DNA of 24,201 nt from a virus (Duplodnaviria; Heunggongvirae; Uroviricota; Caudoviricetes), in IMG/VR virus record IMGVR_UViG_2545824708_000017. One strand, written 5' to 3'. Each line of letters begins with the position of its first letter. The first letter of the stretch is position 1. Made by a program: the position numbers and the translations under genes. The notes beneath the pieces were generated by a model, which searched no databases, was not told the DNA's origin, and worked only from the letters and a program-made list of their open reading frames with translations. Below are positions 1-24,201 of this stretch, one piece after another.

Positions 1-625
1 CGGCTGCACTTTCTGCCGTCTTTCTTGACAATTCAGCTTCTGCTGCACTTTGTGATGACTCACTGGCTTTTTGAGCGGCCGCAGAAGCCGAGGACGAGGA
101 CGCATCCTCTGACTGCTTTGCTGAGGCTGCACTTTCTGCCGCCTGCCGGGCTGACTCCGATGCCTCCCCTGCTGAAGTGTCAGCATTTGCAGCGCTCTCT
201 TCTGCCTGACTGGCTGATATGCCGGCATTCCTCGCTGACGTCTCCGCCTCTCCGGCATTCTTCTTCGCCTCCTCAGCGTGACGCGCCACCTCTTCCACCA
301 TCTGTTCAAAACGGCGCAGTGCCTCCGGCCGGGCATCCTCCTCCGTCATGGCACCGAGAAAATCATTCAGCGTACCCGGCTGAGAATCTTCATACACGGT
401 GATGGTCCCGGCATGTGACGGCGGGACCCCTTCCACCAACAGAATAACGCTGTACTGACCGTACTCAACGTCCATGCTGTAACGCCCGGTTTCATCCGGA
501 TTTTCTGAGGCCAGCGTGTTCACCACCACCGTGGTGCTGTTACGTTTTGCTTTCAGCTGGATTGTGCAGTTCTGTACCGGTTTTCCTGTGCCGTCTTTCA
601 GTACACCTGAAATCTTTACTGCCAT
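1..625 (-). CDS. stf: Side tail fiber protein Stf, N-terminal part (partial; continues past window start)
   Basis: Not in ORF track because it runs off the edge. My translation from ATG at 625-623 gives MAVKISGVLKDGTGKPVQNCTIQLKAKRNSTTVVVN...YSMDVEYGQYSVIL...TVYEDSQPGTLNDFL, which matches the lambda Stf N-terminus as I recall it, followed by Ala/Ser/Glu-rich repeats. GGGGTGA Shine-Dalgarno upstream. Position after lom matches lambda order. Confidence 0.8.
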   Translation of the reverse strand, partial: MAVKISGVLKDGTGKPVQNCTIQLKAKRNSTTVVVNTLASENPDETGRYSMDVEYGQYSVILLVEGVPPSHAGTITVYEDSQPGTLNDFLGAMTEEDARPEALRRFEQMVEEVARHAEEAKKNAGEAETSARNAGISASQAEESAANADTSAGEASESARQAAESAASAKQSEDASSSSASAAAQKASESSQSAAEAELSRKTAESAA

Positions 626-689: not shown

Positions 690-1313
690 TCAGAATTTAT
701 AGCCGACACCCACGATGAAACCGTCAGTGCGCCAGTCGCCACTGCCGGAACCTTCATAAGCAAGGTCAATAACCACCGTCTCTACGGGACTGAACTGAAT
801 CCCGGCATTCCAGGCCGGCGACAGATGACGCGCAGTATGACCATCACTGGCGGTGGTGGTCTCCTTCACATACCCCGGTTTCACTTCATCACGCCGGTAA
901 TCCTGAACACTGTCAGACCAGCGGGTGTACGCCATCCCGGCCATGCCATAGAGACTGACCCGCTCACTGAGCTGCCAGACAGGGCCGGCCATCAGACTGA
1001 CATAACGACCGCGCAGGCTTTCATAATGGAAGGTATTTTCACCCGTCTTCATCGTGTCACTTTTCTTCACCGATGCATAACTCAGCGCGACAATGCCGCC
1101 CAGGTGATCCGTGAACTCATAACGGTATTTCACATTAATCCCTTTTAAATCACCTGCACGCGCACCGGTACCGGACAATGCCGGTACGCCGCCCGGGTGA
1201 ACCTGAGCATATCCCACGGAAAATGCACCGTGTCCGCTTTCAGCCTGTGCAGGAAGGGAAATGCCTGTCAGCAGTGCGGTCCAGAATAAAATGGCTCCGT
1301 ATAAATGTCGCAT
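690..1313 (-). CDS. lom: Outer membrane protein Lom (Ail/Lom/PagC family beta-barrel)
   Basis: 207-aa ORF with signal peptide; motifs GINVKYRYEFTD and C-terminal DLAYEGSGSGDWRTDGFIVGVGYKF match lambda Lom as recalled. Sits between J and stf as in lambda. GAGAGG Shine-Dalgarno 5 nt upstream. Confidence 0.9.
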   Translation of the reverse strand: MRHLYGAILFWTALLTGISLPAQAESGHGAFSVGYAQVHPGGVPALSGTGARAGDLKGINVKYRYEFTDHLGGIVALSYASVKKSDTMKTGENTFHYESLRGRYVSLMAGPVWQLSERVSLYGMAGMAYTRWSDSVQDYRRDEVKPGYVKETTTASDGHTARHLSPAWNAGIQFSPVETVVIDLAYEGSGSGDWRTDGFIVGVGYKF

Positions 1314-1380: not shown

Positions 1381-4300
1381 TCAGCTGATACTGATCCCTG
1401 CCGTGGATTTTTTCATGACCACAACCAGTAAATCACTGATGTACGTTGTCGGCGTCCAGTTGTTCGCACCGGCCGACGACACATTAAACGTCAGGGTGAC
1501 ATGACCCCGCCCTGCCGGCATATCTATCACCGATGAGAACACCCGGCTGACATCCGTTGCCGGTTCATGGAAAATCTCAACCCCGTTCTTCAGCACCTGC
1601 AGCTTACAGGTGGAATACCAGTACGACTGCTGATTCGGGCTGTTGAAATTCTGGTGTTTCGTCCCGTGAAACAGCACCGGGGGAATGATAATCTGCCGGT
1701 CGAATCCCTGGTCATCGTAAACTGTGACGGTTACCGTCCCGCTGGCATAACTGTTATTCCGGGGAAAGGCTTTCCCCACCGTCTTCACCAGGTCGCCTTC
1801 AATCTGGTTTGCAGACAGTTTCCCTCTGATGACACAGTTCTCGTTAATGGTGACATTATTGAGCGTGCCGGTATTCGCGGTAATTGCTCCGCTGATATCC
1901 GCGTTCCTGGCTGTCAGCTTCCCTTCCGGCGTCAGGGAAAACGTCGGGGGGTTGCCGGATGACGTGATACTCGCCGCAAACAGACGCTTCAGGAACACGT
2001 CGTTCATGAACAGCTGATTCCCCTGCGCCACAAATAACGGAGTGCTGTTGCCGCTCTCCGGATTTATCATCGCGATACGGTCAGCCAGCAGCAGTATGTT
2101 GCTCAGTGGCTGGCCATCAGTATCCTCAATCCCTGCACCAATCCCGGCCACATAGGGAATGCCGTCTTTCGTTTTTTGAACCTTCAGCATGTACAGCGCA
2201 GCCAGGTCATCATTTGTGTCCTTCTGCACGCGCTGTATCTGCTGAATGGTGGCGCTCTGGTCTTCCAGCGTTTTACTGACCGTCTGTGTGATTTCATTGC
2301 GGGTTTCGGTGATGGTGGTCTTCATCTCCGCCATCTCATCCGCAAGCTGGCTGTTGTCTATCAGCTCCCATAGCCCCTGAGCCAGATGCAGTTTTCCTAT
2401 TTTTTCCCGGAAAAATTCCAGATACCCTTCACCATCATTGCTGGGCTGCCCGCTGACTTCCACAAACGCAGATTTCCCCACCAGGTTGACGCTGCGCACG
2501 TAAAACCAGAAATCCTTCCCGGGCTTAATGTGCGGGCCGGATACACTCCACTGACTGCCGGTCCCCAGATAACGGGCAGAGGTTTCCACCTGAGATGTGT
2601 CTGCGATTTTTGCCTCCGAAAACCAGAACTCAAACTGTACCGTCGGGTCATACACCGCAAGACGCGGGACCGCCGTTATCTGAAAATACCCCGGCGTCAG
2701 TTCAATGGTGGCGGGTTTTGCTGGCGCGTTAATCTGGAAGGTGGTGGTGGCCGGTTCGCCCTGCTGGCCATAACTGTTAATTGCCCGGACGGTCAGGGTG
2801 TATTCCCCGAGCGGCAGACCACTGAAACGATGCTCTGTATCCGCAGTGATGGCGGTGGTCACCAGACGGCTGTCTTCTCCGCTTCCGTTGGTCAGGCGCA
2901 GACTGAAGCGCACACCCTTCACCACCCGCGGCGTGTCCCATTTCGCCTGTGCCAGATACTGACCGTCAGCCGCGCTCACCTCCACCGTCAGGTGCTGCAC
3001 AGCCGGCGGGATGACGCTGTTCAGCGAACCGGACAGTGGCTCAAAGCTGGCCCCGTTATCCACAATGGCTTCTTTTTCCGGTACGTGCTGCACCGCCGTG
3101 ATGGCAAAGGTGCCGTCCGTGTTTTCCCGGATGGAGACACAGCGGAACAGGCGACGACGCAGTGACGGCAGGGAGAGTCCCCATACACCGTATGTCTCCA
3201 CACCATCAGGCAGGGTGCTGACCTGTATCCGGTCCGGCGCGGGGTGTGCAGTGATGGCCACGCTCACCGGCTTACCGCTGCCGTTAATCAGGTTCACCGT
3301 GGCGGCACCTGTCTCCGGCAGGGTCACCTCACGGTCCAGTGTCAGGGTGCGGCTGGCGGCATCGATGGACAGGATACGTCCGCCGGTCATGGTCCCGGCA
3401 TAGTCGTTATCACAGATTTCAATAATGTCACCGGGTGTGTGACGCAGCCCCTGTGACCCGAGCGTGAAATCCACCGTCTGCGTTTCCAGCAGTCCGGTCT
3501 TTATCACCCACAGCCCGGCACGGTGGGCCTGACCGCGACTGGTGCAACCGAACGCATCCATCTTCAGCAGGTTGCGCCCGTAGCGCAGTATGGCTTCCGG
3601 GTCTTCCACCAGTTCCGTGGAGGTCTGCCAGCCGTTCTGCGGGTCGGTGTAATTCACCTCCACCGCCGTGTGACGGTCCTTCAGGGCGCTGAAGCTGTAG
3701 CGAAACCCCACGCCGTTATCATCCACCACCACATCGCAGTTGGTGTACGGCCACACCACATCCGACGGGCGGTCCTGAACGAACGTCAGCGTCTGGCCGT
3801 TCCATACCGGCATACAGCGCATCGCCGAGCAGAAATCACTGAGCACATCCCATGCCTTACGCTGTTGTGACAGGTACGCATTAAAGGTCATCCGCGGCTC
3901 TGTGCCCCCGAAACCATCCGGGACCGTCTGGTCGCAGTACTGCCCGATGGCATACAGCGCCCACTTGTCCACATCCGCCGCCCCCAGACGTTTTCCCATG
4001 CCGTAACGCGGGTGAGTCAGCATGTCCCACAGGCACCAGGCCGGGTTGTTGCTGTATGCCGGTTTCAGGCTGCCGTCCCAGATACCACTGTACGTGCGTT
4101 TTTCCGGGTCATAGTTTGACGGCACCTGAATAATGCGACCGCGGATATGGTAGTTCACCGTCATCTGCTGACCGCCAAACTGCTCCGCATCCACCTGCAG
4201 CCCCACAATCGCCGTGTTCGGGTAGCACTGTTTCACATCGATGATTTCGGTGTATGACGACCAGAGCGTCTTATTCTGCAGCTGGTCCGAGGTGCTGTCC

Positions 4301-4857
4301 GCTGTCTCCCGGACCATCCGGATGTTAAAGGGCCGCTCAGGCAGATTCTCCAGAATCACCGACGCCAGGTACTGTGAGGTGGTCTTGCCGTTAATGGTGA
4401 CATCCTTTTCCGTCACCCAGTTACCGTTACGCTGCAACTGAATCAGCAGTCGGACAGAAGAGGGATTACGGTCGCCCTTTGAGGTGGTCTCCAACAGTGA
4501 CTGCACCCCGAAGGTGACCCGCAGGCGGTCAATGTTCGCGGATGTAATGGTGCGCGTTACCGGCTTTGCCTTCGTCACTTCCACGCCCAGTCCGGTTTCA
4601 GCTCCGGAGGACTCAAAGCCTTCCGGTGGTGTCTGCTCCTGCTCCCCGGCGCGCCAGACCGCGGTCACACCGTGTATCACAGGATTGCCGTCCGTGTCCG
4701 TCAGCGGGGTTTTGTTCACCAGGATACTCTGCAGCCCCTTCACCGGGCCTTCTATCGGTCCCTCACCAATCGCATCAATCACACTCATCATCTGCGTGGA
4801 TTTGAGATTATCCTTCGCCTCTCGAGGCGTGTGCGCCCTGCCGCCACCTTTGCCCAT
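1381..4857 (-). CDS. J: Tail tip / host specificity protein J (central tail fiber)
   Basis: 1158-aa ORF. N-terminus [39 protein letters not shown] and long internal stretches (e.g. [37 protein letters not shown]) match lambda gpJ (about 1132 aa) from memory. The C-terminal ~150 aa diverge from lambda. Confidence 0.93.
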
Positions 4858-4990
4858 AATGTTCCTCTCAATTGGTATTATTAATCGCAGTGATAGGATA
4901 TTGCACAGCTATTGCGCGATATCATCAGAACGCTGTTTGTTACCCTGTAACCAGCAAGCTCAGTCTGTTAACGGAATTAATGAGGGTTTT

Positions 4991-5518
4991 ATGAAATGTA
5001 AAATCATTGCTGCCATTGCCATGCTGACAGCAGCATCATGCGGATACGCAGCAGAACAGGAAGTCCCAATGAACCTTGTCAGTGCTGACGGAAAAGAAGT
5101 CAGCATTGGAAAAATAACCATTCAGGAGACCCCCTACGGTCTGCTGTTCACACCAGCCCTTCACTCTCTGTCTGAAGGCATTCATGGTTTTCATGTGCAC
5201 GAAAAAGGAAATTGCGCCCCGGCACTGAAAGACGGAAAACCGGTCGCAGCATTATCGGCTGGGGGTCACTTTGACCCGAAAAACACCGGCAAACATCTTG
5301 GCCCCTGGTCTCCGGATGGACACCTGGGCGACCTCCCTGCGCTGTTCGTGACGCATGACGGAAAAGCGAACTACCCGGTCCTGGCCCCGAGACTGAACTC
5401 ATTAAAAGAGATTAAAGGGCGTTCTCTCATGCTTCATGCTGGCGGTGATAACCATCATGACCATCCGGAGCCCCTGGGCGGTGGTGGTGCGAGAATGGCC
5501 TGCGGCATCATTCAATAA
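4991..5518 (+). CDS. sodC: Periplasmic Cu/Zn superoxide dismutase (SodC), prophage-borne
   Basis: 175-aa ORF from ATG 4991 (GAGGG Shine-Dalgarno at 4982-4986); N-terminal signal peptide [20 protein letters not shown]; Cu/Zn-SOD motifs [39 protein letters not shown]. The track ORF 4484..5518 includes a spurious 5' extension antisense to J. Lower GC than flanking tail genes. Confidence 0.9.
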
Positions 5519-5526
5519 TCAGTCAG

Positions 5527-5556
5527 GTAAGGGGCGGGCCCCTTACCTTTATTCCT
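5527..5556 (+). terminator. Rho-independent terminator after sodC
   Basis: ggtaaggggc(5527-5536)/gccccttacc(5539-5548) inverted repeat followed by tttattcct. Confidence 0.55.
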
Positions 5557-5666
5557 CAGGACGATAAATCCTTTCTCCCTGAAAAGAACGGCACATCCTC
5601 CCTCTCTGAGTTAATGTTTTTGTCGTGACATAAGAATAATTCCTTACACTCAATCTTCGTAACGCT

Positions 5667-5710
5667 CCCGCAGTTCCTGTCCGTGAGCACTGCGGGATTT
5701 TTTCGCTTTT
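5667..5710 (+). terminator. Second hairpin with T-run at I/sodC boundary (possible backup terminator)
   Basis: cccgcagt(5667-5674)/actgcggg(5689-5696) stem with 14-nt loop, followed by attttttcgctttt. Plus-strand orientation; overlaps the 3' end of I. Confidence 0.3.
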
Positions 5711-6389
5711 ATGCCTGCCGCCCGATAACCACGACCTTTCCGCCCCCGCCTTCATCACGGGTACTGATGTCCTGGGATATACGGCGGGAGCCAACCAGCA
5801 TTTCCCCGTAAGGCACCGGCATCGGGTTACCCTGGGCAATCATGTTGTCCAGTGACGAAAAATACGTGTTCTGTCTGCCGTTATCCGTGCTTTTGTACTC
5901 CGGTACTTTAGCCTTCGGGGCCAGCATCTGAGCCACACCACCCAGAATCATGCTGGCCCCCAGAGAAAACAGCATCGTGGTGGCAGAAAAACCACCGGCT
6001 GCCAGGGCTGAACCCCATAACGCCATTGATGCCCCGGCAGTGAAGAAAGAGCCCACGATGGCTGCCGCCCCCAGCACAATCTGCAGTCCACCCTTTCCGG
6101 CCCCGGCCAGTCGCGGCACAATGTGGATGACCGTTCCCTCACCCAGCTGTTCGTGAAGACGGGCGTACACCGCCTCCGGTGCCGTGTCCTCACCGCGAAT
6201 ACGTATCTGGTACCAGCCTTCGTTCATCTGACGGCGGAATCCCGGCATCTGCATCGACAGGGCACGGATGGCTTCCGCTGCCGTGTTCACATACAGGCTG
6301 AGGCGGCGGCCAAATCGTTGTAAATCCCCGTGAAGGCAGATGCGTGCCAGTGGCGGTGACGCCAGACAGAATGCGTTCGTCGTTGCCAT
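5709..6389 (-). CDS. I: Tail tip assembly protein I
   Basis: 226-aa ORF; MATTNAFCLASPPLARICLHGDLQRFGRR and NTYFSSLDNMIAQGN...YGEMLVGSR match lambda gpI (223 aa) as recalled. Overlaps the 3' end of K by about 100 nt. Confidence 0.85.
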   Translation of the reverse strand: MATTNAFCLASPPLARICLHGDLQRFGRRLSLYVNTAAEAIRALSMQMPGFRRQMNEGWYQIRIRGEDTAPEAVYARLHEQLGEGTVIHIVPRLAGAGKGGLQIVLGAAAIVGSFFTAGASMALWGSALAAGGFSATTMLFSLGASMILGGVAQMLAPKAKVPEYKSTDNGRQNTYFSSLDNMIAQGNPMPVPYGEMLVGSRRISQDISTRDEGGGGKVVVIGRQA

Positions 6390-18576: not shown

Positions 18577-18779
18577 AACCTCACTCCCAGCGGACGACGG
18601 CGACGTCGGGTTGTCCCCAGTACCGACTCCGCATCATTGATCGCCCGGTTAAGCTCATCCAGAGAAGCCGCCGTATATTCAATTCTGCGACCATCTTTCT
18701 GGACAGACACCACCCGTTTACCGGTTAATAAATCAAGGCGCGCCTGACGTAGCGCCTGTAGTTCAGCGACTGTAACCAT
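18573..18779 (-). CDS. W: Head-tail connector / head completion protein W
   Basis: 68-aa ORF; LLTGKRVVSVQKDGRRIEYTA...RRRRRP matches lambda gpW (68 aa). Confidence 0.9.
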   Translation of the reverse strand: MVTVAELQALRQARLDLLTGKRVVSVQKDGRRIEYTAASLDELNRAINDAESVLGTTRRRRRPLGVRL

Positions 18780-20691
18780 TCACTCCTCCGGACAGCTTCG
18801 CTGCCAGTTCTTTCAGGGTTGGCCGGGTCGTCTCTTCTTCCCGGGATTTTGCCAGTACAGCCAGATCAAGCTGCCAGCGTTGCACGGACACACGTAATGC
18901 CGCGTAGGCATACACCAGGCAGTCCAGCGCTTCGTTACGCCGCTTTTTGTTATCCCACAGCAGACGCATCTTTCCTTTTTCCCACTTCTCCACAAGCTCT
19001 TCCGCGACCAGTTGCTGCGCCTCTGTCTGCGAAAAAATCTCCGGATCATCAGGAAAACGGATGGCATACGACGTGGCTTCATCCGCAGGAGGGGGATCGG
19101 CTTTCATACGGGCATAGAGAATTTCTTTTGCGGTGTCCGTCCCCACTTCACACAGATACACGCCCCGCTGATTGCGGGTTTTCGGCATGGTGATCACCGG
19201 CTTGCCATAGACAGATGCGCCTTTTACCGGCAGCACCCGGAAAACACCGTGTTTTTTTGACCTCTGATAGACAATTTCACCATCGATCCCCCCGGTGTCC
19301 CAGCAGACACGGGAAATGGTCATTTCGGTTCCGTCTGCATGGCAGTATTTTTTGTTGATCGCCGCATCCACACGTAACAGCGTCTCTTCCTCATCGGGAC
19401 GGCCCATAATGATGATTTTATCCACCAGAAAGGCTTCCTCTCCCTGTGCCCATCCCCAGACATACATCTCAAAACGGTTTCGCTGCGAGTCAATGCCCGC
19501 CGTCAGATAAACCACCCGGGCAGGCACCGCCGCCGTGTAACGCACCACCTTATCCATCAGTACCTGGTGATCGAGTTTTTCGCCCACGGCCTCTTCCCAG
19601 GTCTCGCCCAGCGTGGTGTTCACAAAGGTTTTCAGGCCGTTGGGATCTTTCAGTGCATCCAGCCAGTCATAGACTATCTGTATCCAGGTGGTGAACGGAC
19701 TGTACGCCGTCCAGATATGGAACGTGATGGAGCGCGGCGGCGGAATTTCATCCCCCCGGGCGCTGAAAAACATCAGGCCGTCACGGGTCCACATACCCGT
19801 GTTTTCACAGATCCAGCGCCCGTTACTCTGGTCAAGCTCAGACTGATGGATCACGCAGCCATGATGTTCACAGAGGTAGAAAACGCTTTCGGGGCTGTCC
19901 TTCTCCCATTTAAGGCCAAAAGGCGTGGATTCATCGCCAAATTTCAGATACTGCGCCTCCCCACAGTGCGGGCAGGGCACATAGAAACGCATGAAATGCG
20001 CCGACTCGTTGGCCGCTTTTTCGATCTGGCAGGTACCTTTGATTTTAGGCGTCGAGCCGCGAATGGATTTTGGCCATACAGAGCCCTCAATACGCTTATC
20101 CCCCAGCAGGGTTGGCGAGCCCTCTTTTTCGACATCCGGCTCGAACGAGGAAAGTTCGTCATAGCAGACCACGTCCACGGATTTTTCACGGTAGTTTTTG
20201 GCGGCAGCGCCGCCCAGGCACCAGAAACCGACGCCCGATGAAAAGCGTTTCAGCGTGAGAGTATTGTCACGATGTTTACGACCCAGCCATGGGGAAAGGT
20301 CTTTCAGGCATGGCACGTTCCGAATCGTCGCCTCCACGTGAGACTTCATAAAATCTTCAGCGGCAGAATCCGTGGGCTGAAAAAGCAGACTGTTTCGGGA
20401 TTTATGCTCAATAAAATACCCGACCACCCCCAGCAACATCTTTGTATAGCCAACACGGGCAGATTTAATCAGGTTAACCGTGCGAACCTGGTCGTTACCC
20501 ATACAGTTCATAATGGCGATCTGGAATGGCAGCGTTTTCCATTCGCCCTCACCATATGAAGATTCTTTAGGCAGATAATAATTTTGATCAGCCCATTCAA
20601 CTGCCGTCATTGGTACAACCCTGACCAGAGGCTGCAGCGCAACCGAAACGGCAGCCATCATATTATTCAGTTGTTGCTCTGATATATTCAT
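18763..20691 (-). CDS. A: Terminase large subunit A
   Basis: High similarity to lambda gpA throughout (TAVEWADQNYYLPKES, KSARVGYTKMLLGV, Walker-like region, FHIWTAYSPFTTW, CWDTGGID, RRNEALDC). Start placed at MNISEQQLNN (642 aa; lambda 641 aa, starts MNIS...) rather than the track start at 20748; overlaps the Nu1 3' end by about 29 nt, as in lambda. Confidence 0.93.
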   Translation of the reverse strand: MNISEQQLNNMMAAVSVALQPLVRVVPMTAVEWADQNYYLPKESSYGEGEWKTLPFQIAIMNCMGNDQVRTVNLIKSARVGYTKMLLGVVGYFIEHKSRNSLLFQPTDSAAEDFMKSHVEATIRNVPCLKDLSPWLGRKHRDNTLTLKRFSSGVGFWCLGGAAAKNYREKSVDVVCYDELSSFEPDVEKEGSPTLLGDKRIEGSVWPKSIRGSTPKIKGTCQIEKAANESAHFMRFYVPCPHCGEAQYLKFGDESTPFGLKWEKDSPESVFYLCEHHGCVIHQSELDQSNGRWICENTGMWTRDGLMFFSARGDEIPPPRSITFHIWTAYSPFTTWIQIVYDWLDALKDPNGLKTFVNTTLGETWEEAVGEKLDHQVLMDKVVRYTAAVPARVVYLTAGIDSQRNRFEMYVWGWAQGEEAFLVDKIIIMGRPDEEETLLRVDAAINKKYCHADGTEMTISRVCWDTGGIDGEIVYQRSKKHGVFRVLPVKGASVYGKPVITMPKTRNQRGVYLCEVGTDTAKEILYARMKADPPPADEATSYAIRFPDDPEIFSQTEAQQLVAEELVEKWEKGKMRLLWDNKKRRNEALDCLVYAYAALRVSVQRWQLDLAVLAKSREEETTRPTLKELAAKLSGGVNGYSR

Positions 20692-21172
20692 CGAGTAAAT
20701 CCGGTAATTTATCCCCTGCCCGCGCACACTGATTTGCCCCCTTAGCAATAAGGGTTTTCAGATGGTCAAGATGGCGCGGTGTTAAATCAGGAAACTGTCG
20801 CTGCATGGATAAAGGGATGGAATCAAGCGTACTGGATAACGCCATTGCCAGCTTACTGAGGGCAAAAATACAGAACCCGGTGTCAATAAGTTTTCCTTTT
20901 GACACCTCATTTTTTAACTGCTGTGTAACAGCCTGTTCTGCTGTCAGTTCCCATCTGGCAATAAGCAATTTCTCCTCATAGTCGTCTTCGCTATCGCCAT
21001 CAGGCACATCGTTTTTACTTCTCCTCAGATACGATATGTAAAAATCGCGCCAGGCATCCAGATCCAGTTGCCCTCGCTTATTCGATATCGGGGCACCCGG
21101 CAATTTCTGCAATCTGCGAAGCTGGCGATCGGTCAGACTTAAATGCCTGGCAACTTCAGTCTGCGTAGCCAC
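20663..21172 (-). CDS. Nu1: Terminase small subunit Nu1
   Basis: 169-aa ORF from a GTG start; C-terminal half (DTGFCIFALSKLA...LSMQRQFPDL..RHLD.LK) matches lambda Nu1; N-terminal helix-turn-helix (TQTEVARHLSLTDRQLRRL) differs from lambda. First gene after cos. Confidence 0.8.
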   Translation of the reverse strand: MATQTEVARHLSLTDRQLRRLQKLPGAPISNKRGQLDLDAWRDFYISYLRRSKNDVPDGDSEDDYEEKLLIARWELTAEQAVTQQLKNEVSKGKLIDTGFCIFALSKLAMALSSTLDSIPLSMQRQFPDLTPRHLDHLKTLIAKGANQCARAGDKLPDLLDEYIRATTE

Positions 21173-21219
21173 TCCTCACCTCGCAAAAACTCTCACCTCA
21201 CAATCACAACAAAACCGGT

Positions 21220-21230
21220 CATGTCCGGTT
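21220..21230 (+). repeat. cosB-like R repeat 1 (catgtccggtt)
   Basis: Exact 11-mer catgtccggtt; one of three copies between Nu1 start and cosN. Confidence 0.5.
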
Positions 21231-21249
21231 TACATGTCTGTTTTTTGTT

Positions 21250-21260
21250 CATGTCCGGTT
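21250..21260 (+). repeat. cosB-like R repeat 2 (catgtccggtt)
   Basis: Exact direct repeat of the 11-mer, 30 bp from repeat 1. Confidence 0.5.
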
Positions 21261-21307
21261 CACAGAAGACCTGTTTTTATATTTTTCATATAGTTAACTT
21301 GAAGAGA

Positions 21308-21318
21308 AACCGGACATG
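21308..21318 (-). repeat. cosB-like R repeat 3 (inverted copy, aaccggacatg on plus strand)
   Basis: Exact reverse complement of the 11-mer, 38 bp from cosN; separated from repeat 2 by an AT-rich spacer. Confidence 0.5.
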
Positions 21319-21355
21319 GATCCCGGAAAATTTTCATAAATAGCGAAAACCCGCG

Positions 21356-21367
21356 AGGTCGCCGCCC
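21356..21367 (-). other. cosN: 12-nt cohesive-end sequence (GGGCGGCGACCT on minus strand)
   Basis: Minus strand 21367-21330 reads GGGCGGCGACCTCGCGGGTTTTCGCTATTTATGAAAATTTTCCGG, identical to the lambda left end as recalled; flanking cgacaggttacgg matches the lambda right end. Confidence 0.85.
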
Positions 21368-21404
21368 CGTAACCTGTCGGATCGCCGGAAAGGACCCACG
21401 AAAA

Positions 21405-21419
21405 TGATAATAATTATCA
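21405..21419. promoter_or_regulatory. Fur-box-like 7-1-7 palindrome TGATAAT-A-ATTATCA
   Basis: Perfect inverted repeat matching the Fur box core (tGATAATnATTATCa); 14 of 19 matches to the classical GATAATGATAATCATTATC. Lies about 40 bp outside cosN and about 155 bp upstream of the YlcI-like gene. Confidence 0.4.
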
Positions 21420-21574
21420 TCTACATGAGGTTTATCACGACATGTGTGTACGCCATCAAACCACGAGAAATAATCAATTATTACGCAGGTATCGTATTAA
21501 TTGATCTGCATCAAATTAGCGTAAAAGCAACTTCAGATAATACAAATCAGCAACACTGAATACGGGGCAACATT

Positions 21575-21799
21575 ATGTCATCAAAGAACAGAACCCGCAG
21601 AACAACAACCCGCAACATCCGATTTCCAAACCAGATAATTGAACAAATTAACATCGCTCTTGACCTGAAAGGTTCAGGTAATTTTTCAGCGTGGGTTATT
21701 GAAGCCTGCAGAAGAAGATTAATTAATGAAAAATATTCTCAATTTGTACCCAACAAAGACAAACACGACCAGAGCACCTGTTCAGACAGGTTTACTTAA
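21575..21799 (+). CDS. YlcI/YnfO-family small protein (DUF3950-like), prophage-encoded
   Basis: 74-aa ORF; N-terminus MSSKNRTRRTTTRNIRFPNQIIEQINIAL...GSGNFSAWVIEACRRRL closely matches E. coli prophage YlcI/YnfO as recalled; these lie next to cos/terminase in lambdoid prophages. Confidence 0.6.
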   Translation: MSSKNRTRRTTTRNIRFPNQIIEQINIALDLKGSGNFSAWVIEACRRRLINEKYSQFVPNKDKHDQSTCSDRFT

Positions 21800-21817
21800 A
21801 CGACTTATATATGACAC

Positions 21818-21848
21818 AAAAAGCGACCACTAAAGTCGCTTTTTCTTA
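21818..21848. terminator. Bidirectional rho-independent terminator between convergent genes
   Basis: aaaaagcgac(21818-21827)/gtcgcttttt(21835-21844) with 7-nt loop; A-run on one side and T-run on the other. Confidence 0.6.
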
Positions 21849-21880
21849 TGGTAACAGGCAATAACTCTCTCAGATATTTT

Positions 21881-22195
21881 TTAGCATTTTTTTGACCGCG
21901 CGTTTCCGGACGTATTCTGTTCTCCTGTCCCTTTATATCGTCGGAATACCCGCCGCTCTTCAAATCCCATTCCCAACTCAGAATGTAGTCTGTTGACCGC
22001 TTGTTTTATTTCGGTCAGGTTCACCGGTGAAACCGGAGTCCGGCGCGCCTTACGCAAACACTCTGCTCGTTTCTGTGCCGCCACTTTTCTTTTCTGGTCA
22101 TCACTTAGCTGTACCATCACTTTTGCCCATCGTTCAGCTGCTCTCCGGTACAGTCCTTTTTTCTCCAGACATTCTGCCACGTGATCATGTAGCAT
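21881..22195 (-). CDS. PerC-family transcriptional regulator homolog (Pch-like)
   Basis: 104-aa basic ORF with strong GGAGGT Shine-Dalgarno 5 nt upstream; N-terminal AECLEKKGLYRRAAERWAKVM resembles the conserved PerC/Pch N-terminal motif (recall only). Occupies the position where lambda carries bor. Confidence 0.5.
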   Translation of the reverse strand: MLHDHVAECLEKKGLYRRAAERWAKVMVQLSDDQKRKVAAQKRAECLRKARRTPVSPVNLTEIKQAVNRLHSELGMGFEERRVFRRYKGTGEQNTSGNARSKKC

Positions 22196-22240
22196 AAGTG
22201 ACCTCCGATTATCTACAGACTGCCATCCTGAATTTACCTT

Positions 22241-22318
22241 CCCTTAATGAAATAACAATAAAAAACAAACCACGCAAAAACAATAAAACAACACACAAAA
22301 AAACTAAATAATAAACAA
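22241..22318 (+). repeat. Low-complexity A/C-only tract (about 78 nt, almost no G or T) in an AT-rich ORF-free spacer
   Basis: aataacaataaaaaacaaaccacgcaaaaacaataaaacaacacacaaaaaaactaaataataaacaaaaataatcacc; strong strand compositional skew; followed by a T-rich run. Confidence 0.6.
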
Positions 22319-22659
22319 AAATAATCACCTTATTTTATTATTTTTTGAGGGAGCAATTACTGAACAAAAAACGCTGACTATATACTCAAAACCAAACAAC
22401 TATTCTGCCAATCAGGTATCATGGCAACACACGGAATTACCGTGTTTTTGCCTTCTCTGCCCATACAATACGGGCATATACTTCATTCTCTATTGTAATA
22501 TTTCTATCCATGTGCCCCACTCCATTTACCTGTAAATAATATTCAAAATATTTATCACAGAAATCGTTTTTGGCCATGAACTGAGCACACTATAAAGTCC
22601 GGAACTGACTCTTTGTTAAATTACCTTAACGTTACCAGTAACACCTTCATAACAAAACA

Positions 22660-23127
22660 TCACGGTATACACTGGGTACGGATATATTCCTGTGCTCCTT
22701 CCAGTTGCTTCTGCATTGCCATCAGCCGTTCTCTGAGGATGAAATAATCCCGTTCAGCGGTGTCTGCCAGTCGGGGGCCGGTTGCATTATCCACGCCGGA
22801 GGTGCCGGTGGCTTCACGCACGGTACCGGAGCAGGTGGCGTTGATCCGCAGGCGCTTACGACCAGCGGCAACATCAGCACGCAGAGTTTCATTTTCAGCT
22901 CTCGCATCGGCTAATTCCCTCGAGTATCTGGCATCAAGTGCAGCGACATCACGCTGGCGTATCTGCATATCAGTAATTGTCGCGTTCGCCAGCTCCAGCT
23001 CACTGGCTTTTTTATCGCGCTGCTCTTTGTAGATGATGGCGTGATCACGGTAATGATTCAGCCCCAGACTAAGCGCACCACAGGCCACCAGCAGGACAAT
23101 GATAACCACGCACAGAACACGGTTCAT
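22660..23127 (-). CDS. Rz: Inner-membrane spanin Rz
   Basis: NHYRD..I.YK.QRDK, ITDMQ.RQRDVAALDA, LRERL.AMQKQLEG match lambda Rz. Start placed at MNRVL (155 aa; GGTGGTGA Shine-Dalgarno) rather than the track start at 23184. Confidence 0.85.
   Translation of the reverse strand: MNRVLCVVIIVLLVACGALSLGLNHYRDHAIIYKEQRDKKASELELANATITDMQIRQRDVAALDARYSRELADARAENETLRADVAAGRKRLRINATCSGTVREATGTSGVDNATGPRLADTAERDYFILRERLMAMQKQLEGAQEYIRTQCIP
22722..22907 (-). CDS. Rz1: Outer-membrane spanin Rz1 (lipoprotein, embedded in +1 frame of Rz)
   Basis: 61-aa ORF wholly inside Rz; lipobox LVVSAC; Pro-rich CVKPPAPPAWIMQPAPDWQTPLNGIISSSE matches lambda Rz1. Confidence 0.75.
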   Translation of the reverse strand: MRELKMKLCVLMLPLVVSACGSTPPAPVPCVKPPAPPAWIMQPAPDWQTPLNGIISSSENG

Positions 23128-23128
23128 A

Positions 23129-23242
23129 TCACCACCAACGGATTGCCCAGACCAGAACAGCAATGGCCACAATACGAATGGCAAAAGCTGCCGCTCTTGT
23201 TAAATCCAGACTGGCTGGCGTCTCCACTTCAATGCCTTTCAT
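23129..23242 (-). CDS. Hypothetical 37-aa membrane peptide, translationally coupled to Rz (speculative)
   Basis: My translation gives MKGIEVETPASLDLTRAAAFAIRIVAIAVLVWAIRWW with one predicted transmembrane helix; GAGG Shine-Dalgarno about 9 nt upstream; TGA stop 1 nt before the Rz ATG. Below the track's length cutoff. Confidence 0.2.
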   Translation of the reverse strand: MKGIEVETPASLDLTRAAAFAIRIVAIAVLVWAIRWW

Positions 23243-23344
23243 AATGGACAACCTCAGAAAGAATCTTTTATACTTCCTCACAGGGAAAGTACCTCCCTAC
23301 CCATAATTTCTCCCTTGCCTTACTCAAGGTCAGAAAACACAAAA

Positions 23345-23374
23345 CCCCGCTTGCTGCCAACAAACGGGGTTTTT
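23345..23374. terminator. Hairpin with flanking A/T runs in the R-Rz intergenic gap
   Basis: ccccgcttg(23345-23353)/caaacgggg(23361-23369), 8 of 9 bp paired, followed by ttttt and preceded by aaaa. Confidence 0.35.
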
Positions 23375-23462
23375 ACTTTTATTCACTTAGGTTTTACCAG
23401 TTTTCAGGATTTCGTGTTATCCACCCGCGTTGGCCAACGTCATTTTTCAGGAAAATATTCTG

Positions 23463-23957
23463 CTATCTGTCGATGTCCCAGCACGCCAGCGCGCTCTCCT
23501 GGTCACGCCGTGAGACCTGACCGTAGCAATTATTTGAACGGATACGGCAGTCTCTGCCACCGTCCTTAATCCACCAGCGAATCGCCTCACAGGCACCTTT
23601 TCGATCGCCTGCATTAATTCGTTTATAAAACGTCGACGGGAAGCACTTACCGGGGCCAATGTTGTACGGACAGAATGACGCGATCCCCGCTTTCTGGGGT
23701 TCGGTCAGCGGCACCCGGATGTTTTTCTCCACCCATGCCAGCGCCTTGTCACGTTCGATGGCATTAACCCGGTCGCATTTTTCCTTTGACAGCTTCATGC
23801 CAGGAATAACAGGCTTACCATCCACCAGAATGGCACCACGGCAGATGGTCCAGATCCCCGCACCATCACGGTATGCCGTGGTGTGGTTACCTTCCTTTTC
23901 ATCCAGAAACTGGTCGAGGATTTCAGGCGCAGAAGCACCTGCACCAATCAGCGCCAG
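23463..23957 (-). pseudogene. R: Phage endolysin R (lysozyme family), 5' end truncated by IS1 insertion
   Basis: Reading frame is open from the IS1 boundary (...LALIGAGASAPEILDQFLDEKEGNHTTAYRDGAGIWTICRG...) to the stop at 23463, with no start codon for the hydrophobic N-terminus; the in-frame stop just upstream is IS1's own. C-terminus CYGQVSRRDQESALACWDIDR resembles endolysins of 933W-like prophages. Confidence 0.75.
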
Positions 23958-24201
23958 GGTAATGACTCCAACTTACTGATAGTGTTTTATGTTCAGATAA
24001 TGCCCGATGACCTTGTCATGCAGCTCCGCCGATTTTGAGAACGACAGTGACTTCCGTCCCAGCCTTGCCAGATGTTGTCTCAGATTCAGATTATGTCGCT
24101 CAATGCGCTGAGTGTAACGCTTGCTGATAACGTGCAGCTTTCCCTTCAGGCATGATTCATACAGCGGCCAGCCATCCGTCATCCATACCACGACCTCAAA
24201 G
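23958..24201 (-). mobile_element. IS1 insertion sequence, one terminus plus insB 3' end (partial; continues past window end)
   Basis: ggtaatgactccaacttactgatagtgttttatgttcagataatgcccgatgac is the reverse complement of the IS1 terminal inverted repeat; the adjacent ORF encodes the InsB C-terminus. Confidence 0.9.
23973..24201 (-). CDS. insB: IS1 transposase InsB, C-terminal part (partial)
   Basis: [72 protein letters not shown] matches IS1 InsB C-terminus from memory. Confidence 0.9.

Follow-up and report, generated by a model that had tools for sequence, protein, structure and literature searches.

A probable IS1 insertion near the 5′ end of the putative SAR endolysin gene R in a lambda-like prophage of Escherichia coli

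The late region and the remnant of R

The DNA analysed here, referred to as the window, is a stretch of 24,201 nucleotides corresponding to the complete draft contig APZJ01000162.1 (GCA_000356905.1). Its content is the late region of a lambda-like prophage, read from the minus strand. Reading away from the remnant of R, the order of genes is a small ORF, Rz/Rz1, a perC-like gene, Nu1, A, W, portal, protease, D, E, FI, FII and Z, followed by U, V, G, T, H, M, L, K, I, sodC (on the plus strand), J, Lom and the start of a tail fibre gene. None of the 22 late genes checked, from lom to Rz, contains an internal stop, and most of their products match those of intact relatives without a difference; the spanin, terminase, head and tail genes are uninterrupted, with Pfam support for Rz, Rz1 and Lom. 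An earlier note on this DNA had described the late operon as otherwise intact, a description that holds for Rz/Rz1, Nu1 and A through to J and Lom. A spacer of 220 nt (23243-23462) separates R from the small ORF and contains a terminator-like hairpin (Table 1).

The accessory genes of the window are sodC, lom and the perC-like regulator gene; sodC, a classic moron, runs counter to the late operon. The same note had spoken of retained virulence cargo. Inside the window this cargo amounts to these three genes, with no toxin genes, and genes for T3SS effectors occur only in relatives, past the position of the window's left end.

Table 1. Features of the window that bear on the R/IS1 junction and its surroundings (positions are those of the whole window)
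Feature	Position	Strand	Basis or remark
lom	690-1313	-	Pfam
sodC, periplasmic Cu/Zn superoxide dismutase, between tail genes I and J	4991-5518	+	Pfam Sod_Cu, E=4e-32
Large terminase subunit gene, rare variant known from a single public contig	18763-20691	-	
perC-like regulator gene	21881-22195	-	accessory gene
Rz i-spanin, intact	22660-23127	-	Pfam PF03245, E=8e-49; no internal stops
Rz1 o-spanin, embedded in Rz	22722-22907	-	Pfam PF06085, E=2e-21
Conserved 37-aa ORF, 'hypothetical' in relatives (WP_000675931.1)	23129-23242	-	after the hairpin
Terminator-like hairpin and T-run, in the spacer between R and the small ORF/Rz	23341-23373	-	15-pair stem, then GTGTTTTCTG
3′ 495 nt of the 933W-type putative SAR endolysin gene R (164 codons and stop)	23463-23957	-	100% identity to intact allele WP_001003118.1; Pfam PF00959
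Predicted 9-bp IS1 target CAGCGCCAG	23949-23957		inferred from the 8-9 bp duplication habit of IS1
IS1 terminal part (insB end), 244 nt, transposase reading in the same direction as R	23958-24201	-	244/244 identity to positions 901-1144 of a locus with a full IS1 copy (L026)
IS1 23-nt terminal inverted repeat GGTAATGACTCCAACTTACTGAT, first base at the junction	23958-23980		repeat pair in the full copy
ATT codon within the IS1 inverted repeat, annotated start of the 166-aa 'lysozyme' WP_032305183.1	23961-23963	-	deposited gene call
insB C-terminal 75 codons and TAA stop (23975-23973)	23973-24200	-	Pfam PF03400

The lysozyme reading frame ends at a stop codon at 23465-23463 on the minus strand and is open upstream as far as a TAA at 23975-23973. 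Its translation from 23957 downward reads LALIGAGASAPEILDQFLDEKEGNHTTAYRDGAGIWT...ACWDIDR, and at all 495 nt of 23463-23957 the window agrees with the intact lysozyme gene for WP_001003118.1, 534 nt long, of which this segment is the 3′ part. The reference was E. coli O157:H7 TR01 (positions 3264-3797 of the locus L001), and intact alleles have 177 codons. What the remnant lacks is exactly 39 nt, or 13 codons, MNEKIKYGLSAAV, which include the start codon, and the ribosome-binding site has gone as well. The missing 39 nt were sought across the rest of the window, where no second copy was found. The alignment to intact 933W-type endolysins that the earlier note had proposed thus gives 100% nucleotide identity to an intact 177-codon allele and falls 39 nt short of it, and beside the IS1 end there is no intact start codon and N-terminus of R, all 13 codons being absent. 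That the lysozyme frame runs without a start codon up to the IS1 repeat at 23958, as had been observed, is borne out by both the frame scan and this alignment.

The catalytic part of the protein is preserved. The phage lysozyme domain PF00959 (GH24, T4-lysozyme-like) is recognised in the remnant with E=6.3e-24 and spans residues 33-167 of the intact protein, so that the domain is complete, and the catalytic E-x8-D-x5-T triad is kept as EGNHTTAYRDGAGIWT, residues 35-50 in the numbering of the intact protein. The losses fall in the N-terminal region. SAR endolysins begin with basic residues and continue with a weakly hydrophobic, charge-free segment, about 18-20 residues long and rich in Gly, Ala and Ser; in the intact allele the uncharged stretch after the basic head has 18 residues. 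The basic head MNEKIK and the first seven of the 18 uncharged residues are gone, while LALIGAGASAP is still encoded, and the remnant no longer shows the SAR feature that the intact allele has. The statement that the N-terminal signal-anchor region is missing should therefore be narrowed to the basic head and seven of the 18 uncharged residues, since the rest of the stretch remains.

Between the upstream stop and a GTG at 23825 there is no ATG, GTG or TTG in the R frame, only the non-canonical ATT, CTG and ATC. The GTG at 23825 corresponds to Val57 of intact R and lies downstream of the catalytic E35-x8-D44-x5-T50 (Glu-Asp-Thr) motif. For the 120-aa ORF that would start there, the database matches are only contig-edge fragments and one IS1203-disrupted copy, in unrelated contexts. 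The deposited gene call places the start at an ATT that belongs to the IS1 repeat. A GGAG contributed by the IS1 end lies 2 nt upstream of this ATT (23963-23961) and 8 nt upstream of the CTG at 23957, and trace translation from either codon may occur. The deposited protein WP_032305183.1 (23463-23963, minus strand) is probably an annotation artefact that masks a pseudogene.

The IS1 end and its junction with R

IS1 elements carry an insA/insB′ frameshift transposase and make a target duplication of 8-9 bp. The 244 nt at the right-hand end of the window are fully identical to part of a complete annotated copy of 768 bp (L026, 901-1668, annotated as 'IS1 family transposase'), a segment that takes in one inverted repeat and the last third of insB. 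In that copy the 23-nt inverted repeats at 901-923 and 1646-1668 pair with each other, and positions 23958-23980 of the window correspond to 901-923; this is the only copy of the IS1 inverted repeat in the window, where none would be expected by chance. The 75 insB residues match Pfam PF03400 (DDE_Tnp_IS1) with E=1.6e-38 over positions 57-131 of the 131-position profile. Two features of an IS1 element are thus present, namely a terminal repeat of about 23 bp starting with GGT, of which the window holds one end, and an IS1-type DDE transposase. Among the complete-genome matches listed, this exact IS1 variant (244/244) occurs in one record, plasmid pE602687_136 (NZ_CP189658.1), the next-best listed match being 99.2% identical. 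The matching copy on this ETEC plasmid adjoins eltAB, which encodes the heat-labile enterotoxin.

The Pfam match, together with the reading frame, confirms the earlier attribution of the in-frame stop at 23973-23975 to insB. This TAA is in the R frame and precedes the R remnant by five codons, and an InsB-R fusion protein, which was considered, is therefore ruled out.

The switch from R to IS1 is exact to the base at 23957/23958, and no sequence is common to R and IS1 at the join. Because the switch coincides with base 1 of the IS1 repeat and no sequence is shared, the junction bears the signature of transposition and not of a k-mer-mediated misjoin. The contig stops 244 nt inside IS1, a multi-copy repeat, and its left end likewise lies in a repeat, a tail-fibre N-terminal gene (1-625, minus strand) that recurs among lambdoid prophages; a repeat at either end is a common break pattern in short-read assemblies.

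Intact relatives and the lysis cassette

A megablast search against complete E. coli genomes returned best matches that stop at 23957 without exception, and in the relatives inspected an intact R of 177 aa lies where the match to the window breaks off. Over positions 1-23957 the window is 99.1% identical to a prophage of E. coli B19374, and over the terminase-to-R segment (18700-23957) it is 99.8-99.9% identical to several genomes with intact prophages. In the 5426 complete E. coli genomes there is no place that covers at least 80% of a query spanning the R/IS1 junction, and the exact 34-nt junction is absent from GTDB species representatives, JGI metagenome contigs and IMG/VR. A look through 153 billion gene positions places the disrupted 166-aa product on a single contig.

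In the intact relatives with this R allele, the region upstream of R comprises, in order, some 160 nt, an ORF of 90 aa on the opposite strand and a holin of 68-71 aa, and then a SASA-family esterase and the Q antiterminator. The holin lies about 690 nt upstream of R and matches Pfam PF04971, 'Bacteriophage P21 holin S', with E=1.9e-32; this is the prototype family of the pinholins. This arrangement agrees with the earlier expectation that the holin of the window's prophage would lie beyond the IS1, outside the window. The 90-aa ORF between holin and R (WP_000138558.1; L002, 30158-30430, plus strand, with equivalents in L009-L018) is conserved and has no Pfam match, and other variants of the lysis cassette have a DUF1327 gene between holin and R as well.

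Several lines of comparison suggest that R encodes a SAR endolysin. At the protein level the intact allele shares 94.4% identity with R of the Stx2 phage VT2-Sakai, from which likeness we regard it as 933W-type, and a '933W SAR endolysin' is among the constructs of a published study (PMC9239132). It also aligns with the SAR endolysin R21 of phage 21 (3hde; E=1.6e-16) from residue 9 onward, including the N-terminal membrane segment, and with RrrD of DLP12 (4zpu). The N-terminus of intact R has lysines at positions 4 and 6 and then 18 uncharged residues, YGLSAAVLALIGAGASAP, among which Ala, Gly and Ser are frequent, and it fits the description of a SAR domain given in PMC9239132. SAR endolysins are exported by Sec, and as long as the membrane is energised, the SAR segment keeps them inactive within it. 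Collapse of the proton motive force by the holin sets them free, and their refolding involves the SAR segment (PMC6116005, PMC9239132). The pinholes made by S21 are about 2 nm wide, too narrow for a soluble endolysin (PMC6116005). On the basis of homology and of the relatives, R is thus a putative SAR endolysin paired with a P21-type pinholin. The triad, the basic head and the Gly/Ala/Ser-rich stretch are shared between the intact allele and VT2-Sakai/933W-type R, R21 (3HDE/3HDF) and RrrD (4ZPU). In contrast to members of the 933W-type R family, the copy in the window is without codons 1-13, start codon and ribosome-binding site, and is a remnant and not a functional member.

Insertion sequences have also entered related prophages elsewhere. 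A second, independent knock-out of the same R allele is present on another contig (L003; GCA_000462465.2, AVRG01000029.1), in which a 1310-bp element (1762-3071) follows codon 42 and is flanked by a 3-bp TAC duplication. This element is of the IS1203/IS629 type and 100% identical to an 'IS3-like IS1203 family' element at the TR01 locus, and the same contig has a further IS3-family copy, with an orfA/orfB pair, downstream of perC. In strain HCP5S3_I4 (H145, NZ_CM149869.1) an IS1A interrupts the large terminase gene of a prophage of the same family, in the region matching 18700-23957. At the O157:H7 TR01 locus R is intact; the class II holin CDS (4485-4649) is just 165 nt long there, compared with 207-216 nt elsewhere, and an IS1203 (4719-5932) begins about 70 nt beyond the 5′ (start-codon) end of this short CDS, with another IS1203 downstream of perC. 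Outside this family, the IS-disrupted nu1 of Sp4 in O157 Sakai (PMC2669165) is a like case, in which a lambdoid prophage that is otherwise conserved has an insertion sequence in an essential late gene. The insertion sequence and the site differ from those described here, and since the Sakai lambdoid prophages have all kept complete lysis sets (PMC2669165), R is a less commonly described target.

Origin of the junction and its consequence for lysis

We consider it highly likely that IS1 transposed into codon 13/14 of R in a lambda-like prophage of one E. coli strain, and that R thereby became a null allele in cis. The proposal in the earlier note that IS1 had inserted into the 5′ end of R is upheld as far as an IS1 end abuts R at codon 13/14, although the word 'inserted' rests on a single junction. 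A simple insertion makes definite predictions for the sequence beyond the contig. The far end of the element would read ...AAGTTGGCAGCAGTACC and be followed by CAGCGCCAG and AACGGCAGCCGACAGGCCGTATTTTATTTTTTCGTTCAT, that is, by the 9-bp duplication and the 5′ stub of R; the far flank of the 768-bp IS1 would likewise be CAGCGCCAG and AACGGCAGCCGAC..., the 5′ end of R, with the holin after it.

In mechanistic terms, the IS1 would cut the body of R off from its ribosome-binding site, its ATG, the basic head MNEKIK and the first seven SAR residues. An R protein in a pinholin cassette would need Sec export by way of its SAR domain, and then release and activation upon depolarisation by a P21-type pinholin. 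A product initiated in traces at ATT or CTG would be expected to have no working export signal and to remain stuck in the cytoplasm. Since SAR-dependent export is required and the pinholes are too small for a cytoplasmic enzyme, R is very probably null in cis.

The remainder of the late operon need not be affected in the same way. The IS1, which has the same orientation as the morphogenetic genes, would stand between all of these and pR′, so late transcription should have to cross it. RNA polymerase modified by Q ignores terminators, and because of this resistance late transcription is expected to pass through the IS1. If the prophage is otherwise working and the cell has no other endolysin, induction would kill the cell at the time of holin triggering, with no clearing of the culture and with the virions remaining cell-bound.

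That last proviso is of some weight. The earlier note had held that the prophage is probably lysis-defective, of which the defect of R in cis is well founded, but the phenotype of the cell depends also on endolysin supplied in trans. Co-resident lambdoid prophages might provide an endolysin, and a holin, so that the prophage would not be lysis-defective even though its own R is broken; we hold this to be a serious contender, at somewhat less than an even chance. R-type lysozyme genes are found in 2199 of the 5426 complete E. coli genomes, with a median of 2 and a maximum of 13 copies in those that carry them. Packaging and transfer of defective lambdoid prophages occur in O157 Sakai, and the authors of that study credit them to co-resident prophages that complement the morphogenetic defects (PMC2669165); complementation among lambdoid prophages is to this extent documented. 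However, the complementation described there concerns morphogenesis and packaging, in a strain whose lambdoid lysis sets are all complete, so that the supply of an endolysin in trans is an extrapolation from it.

The second alternative concerns the event itself. The junction could be the endpoint of an IS1-mediated adjacent deletion, of an inversion or of a recombination between two IS1 copies, in which case the 5′ end of R, the holin and possibly Q and pR′ would have been deleted or relocated and the late operon cut from its promoter. IS1 is known to generate adjacent deletions. The contig stops inside the IS1 and offers one junction only, the missing 39 nt are nowhere else in the window, and there is heavy traffic of insertion sequences in and near the lysis cassette of related prophages, all of which would suit such a rearrangement. 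Simple insertion is nevertheless the commonest outcome of IS1 transposition, and the 99.8-99.9% identity of 18700-23957 to intact prophages suggests a very recent single event; we regard the rearrangement as unlikely.

The age of the event is also relevant to a further claim of the earlier note, that an intact late operon next to a broken lysis gene is the typical state of a domesticated prophage. This is not indicated: the junction is in one assembly only, R as far as it survives agrees at 100% with intact alleles, and no late gene that was checked is broken, a pattern that fits a recent, strain-specific hit by IS1 better than a long domestication. It could also be imagined that the insertion is a selected 'lysis-off' allele and not neutral decay, whereby an inducible, assembly-competent prophage with its sodC, lom and perC-like genes is kept while the cell is spared a burst, lysis being restorable by rare precise excision of the IS1 or by the endolysin of another prophage, with a latent cytoplasmic SAR-less lysozyme as a possible addition; we think this very improbable.

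Still a little less credible is that the remnant is a working gene, started at the ATT or at the CTG at 23957 with the help of the GGAG of IS1, whose product of 164-166 aa would lyse cells. The RefSeq call of 166 aa from ATT 23963, the GGAG 8 nt before CTG 23957 and the completeness of the catalytic domain might be read in this way. Against this, no more than 2 nt separate the GGAG from the ATT, and ATT and CTG are very poor initiators in E. coli. With the basic head and seven of 18 SAR residues gone, Sec targeting and anchoring should fail; moreover, a P21-type pinhole excludes a soluble endolysin, and the SAR segment takes part in the refolding to the active form (PMC6116005). An assembly artefact at the R-IS1 join is the least probable reading. 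The contig is a short-read draft with its end in a multi-copy repeat, and the junction was found in no other public genome searched, but the change to IS1 comes precisely with base 1 of the repeat, with nothing shared that could lead to a graph-based misjoin, and 244 nt of IS1 continue beyond it.

Simple transposition of IS1 into R thus remains the preferred reading, even though a contig that ends in an insertion sequence cannot by itself decide between insertion and deletion. Insertional inactivation by IS1 is textbook, R and IS1 are both known sequences, and the case as a whole is one of ordinary prophage decay. Its main practical value lies in flagging a public annotation that shows the remnant of R as an intact lysozyme; given the RefSeq label 'lysozyme', predictors of prophage completeness would score the lysis module as intact. 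That the target is a putative SAR endolysin gives the predicted phenotype, death without lysis and with trapped virions, a specific and easily testable form. For the lambdoid prophages of E. coli, the R/IS1 junction adds one more example of their erosion by insertion sequences, and would be a clean case in a SAR endolysin gene.
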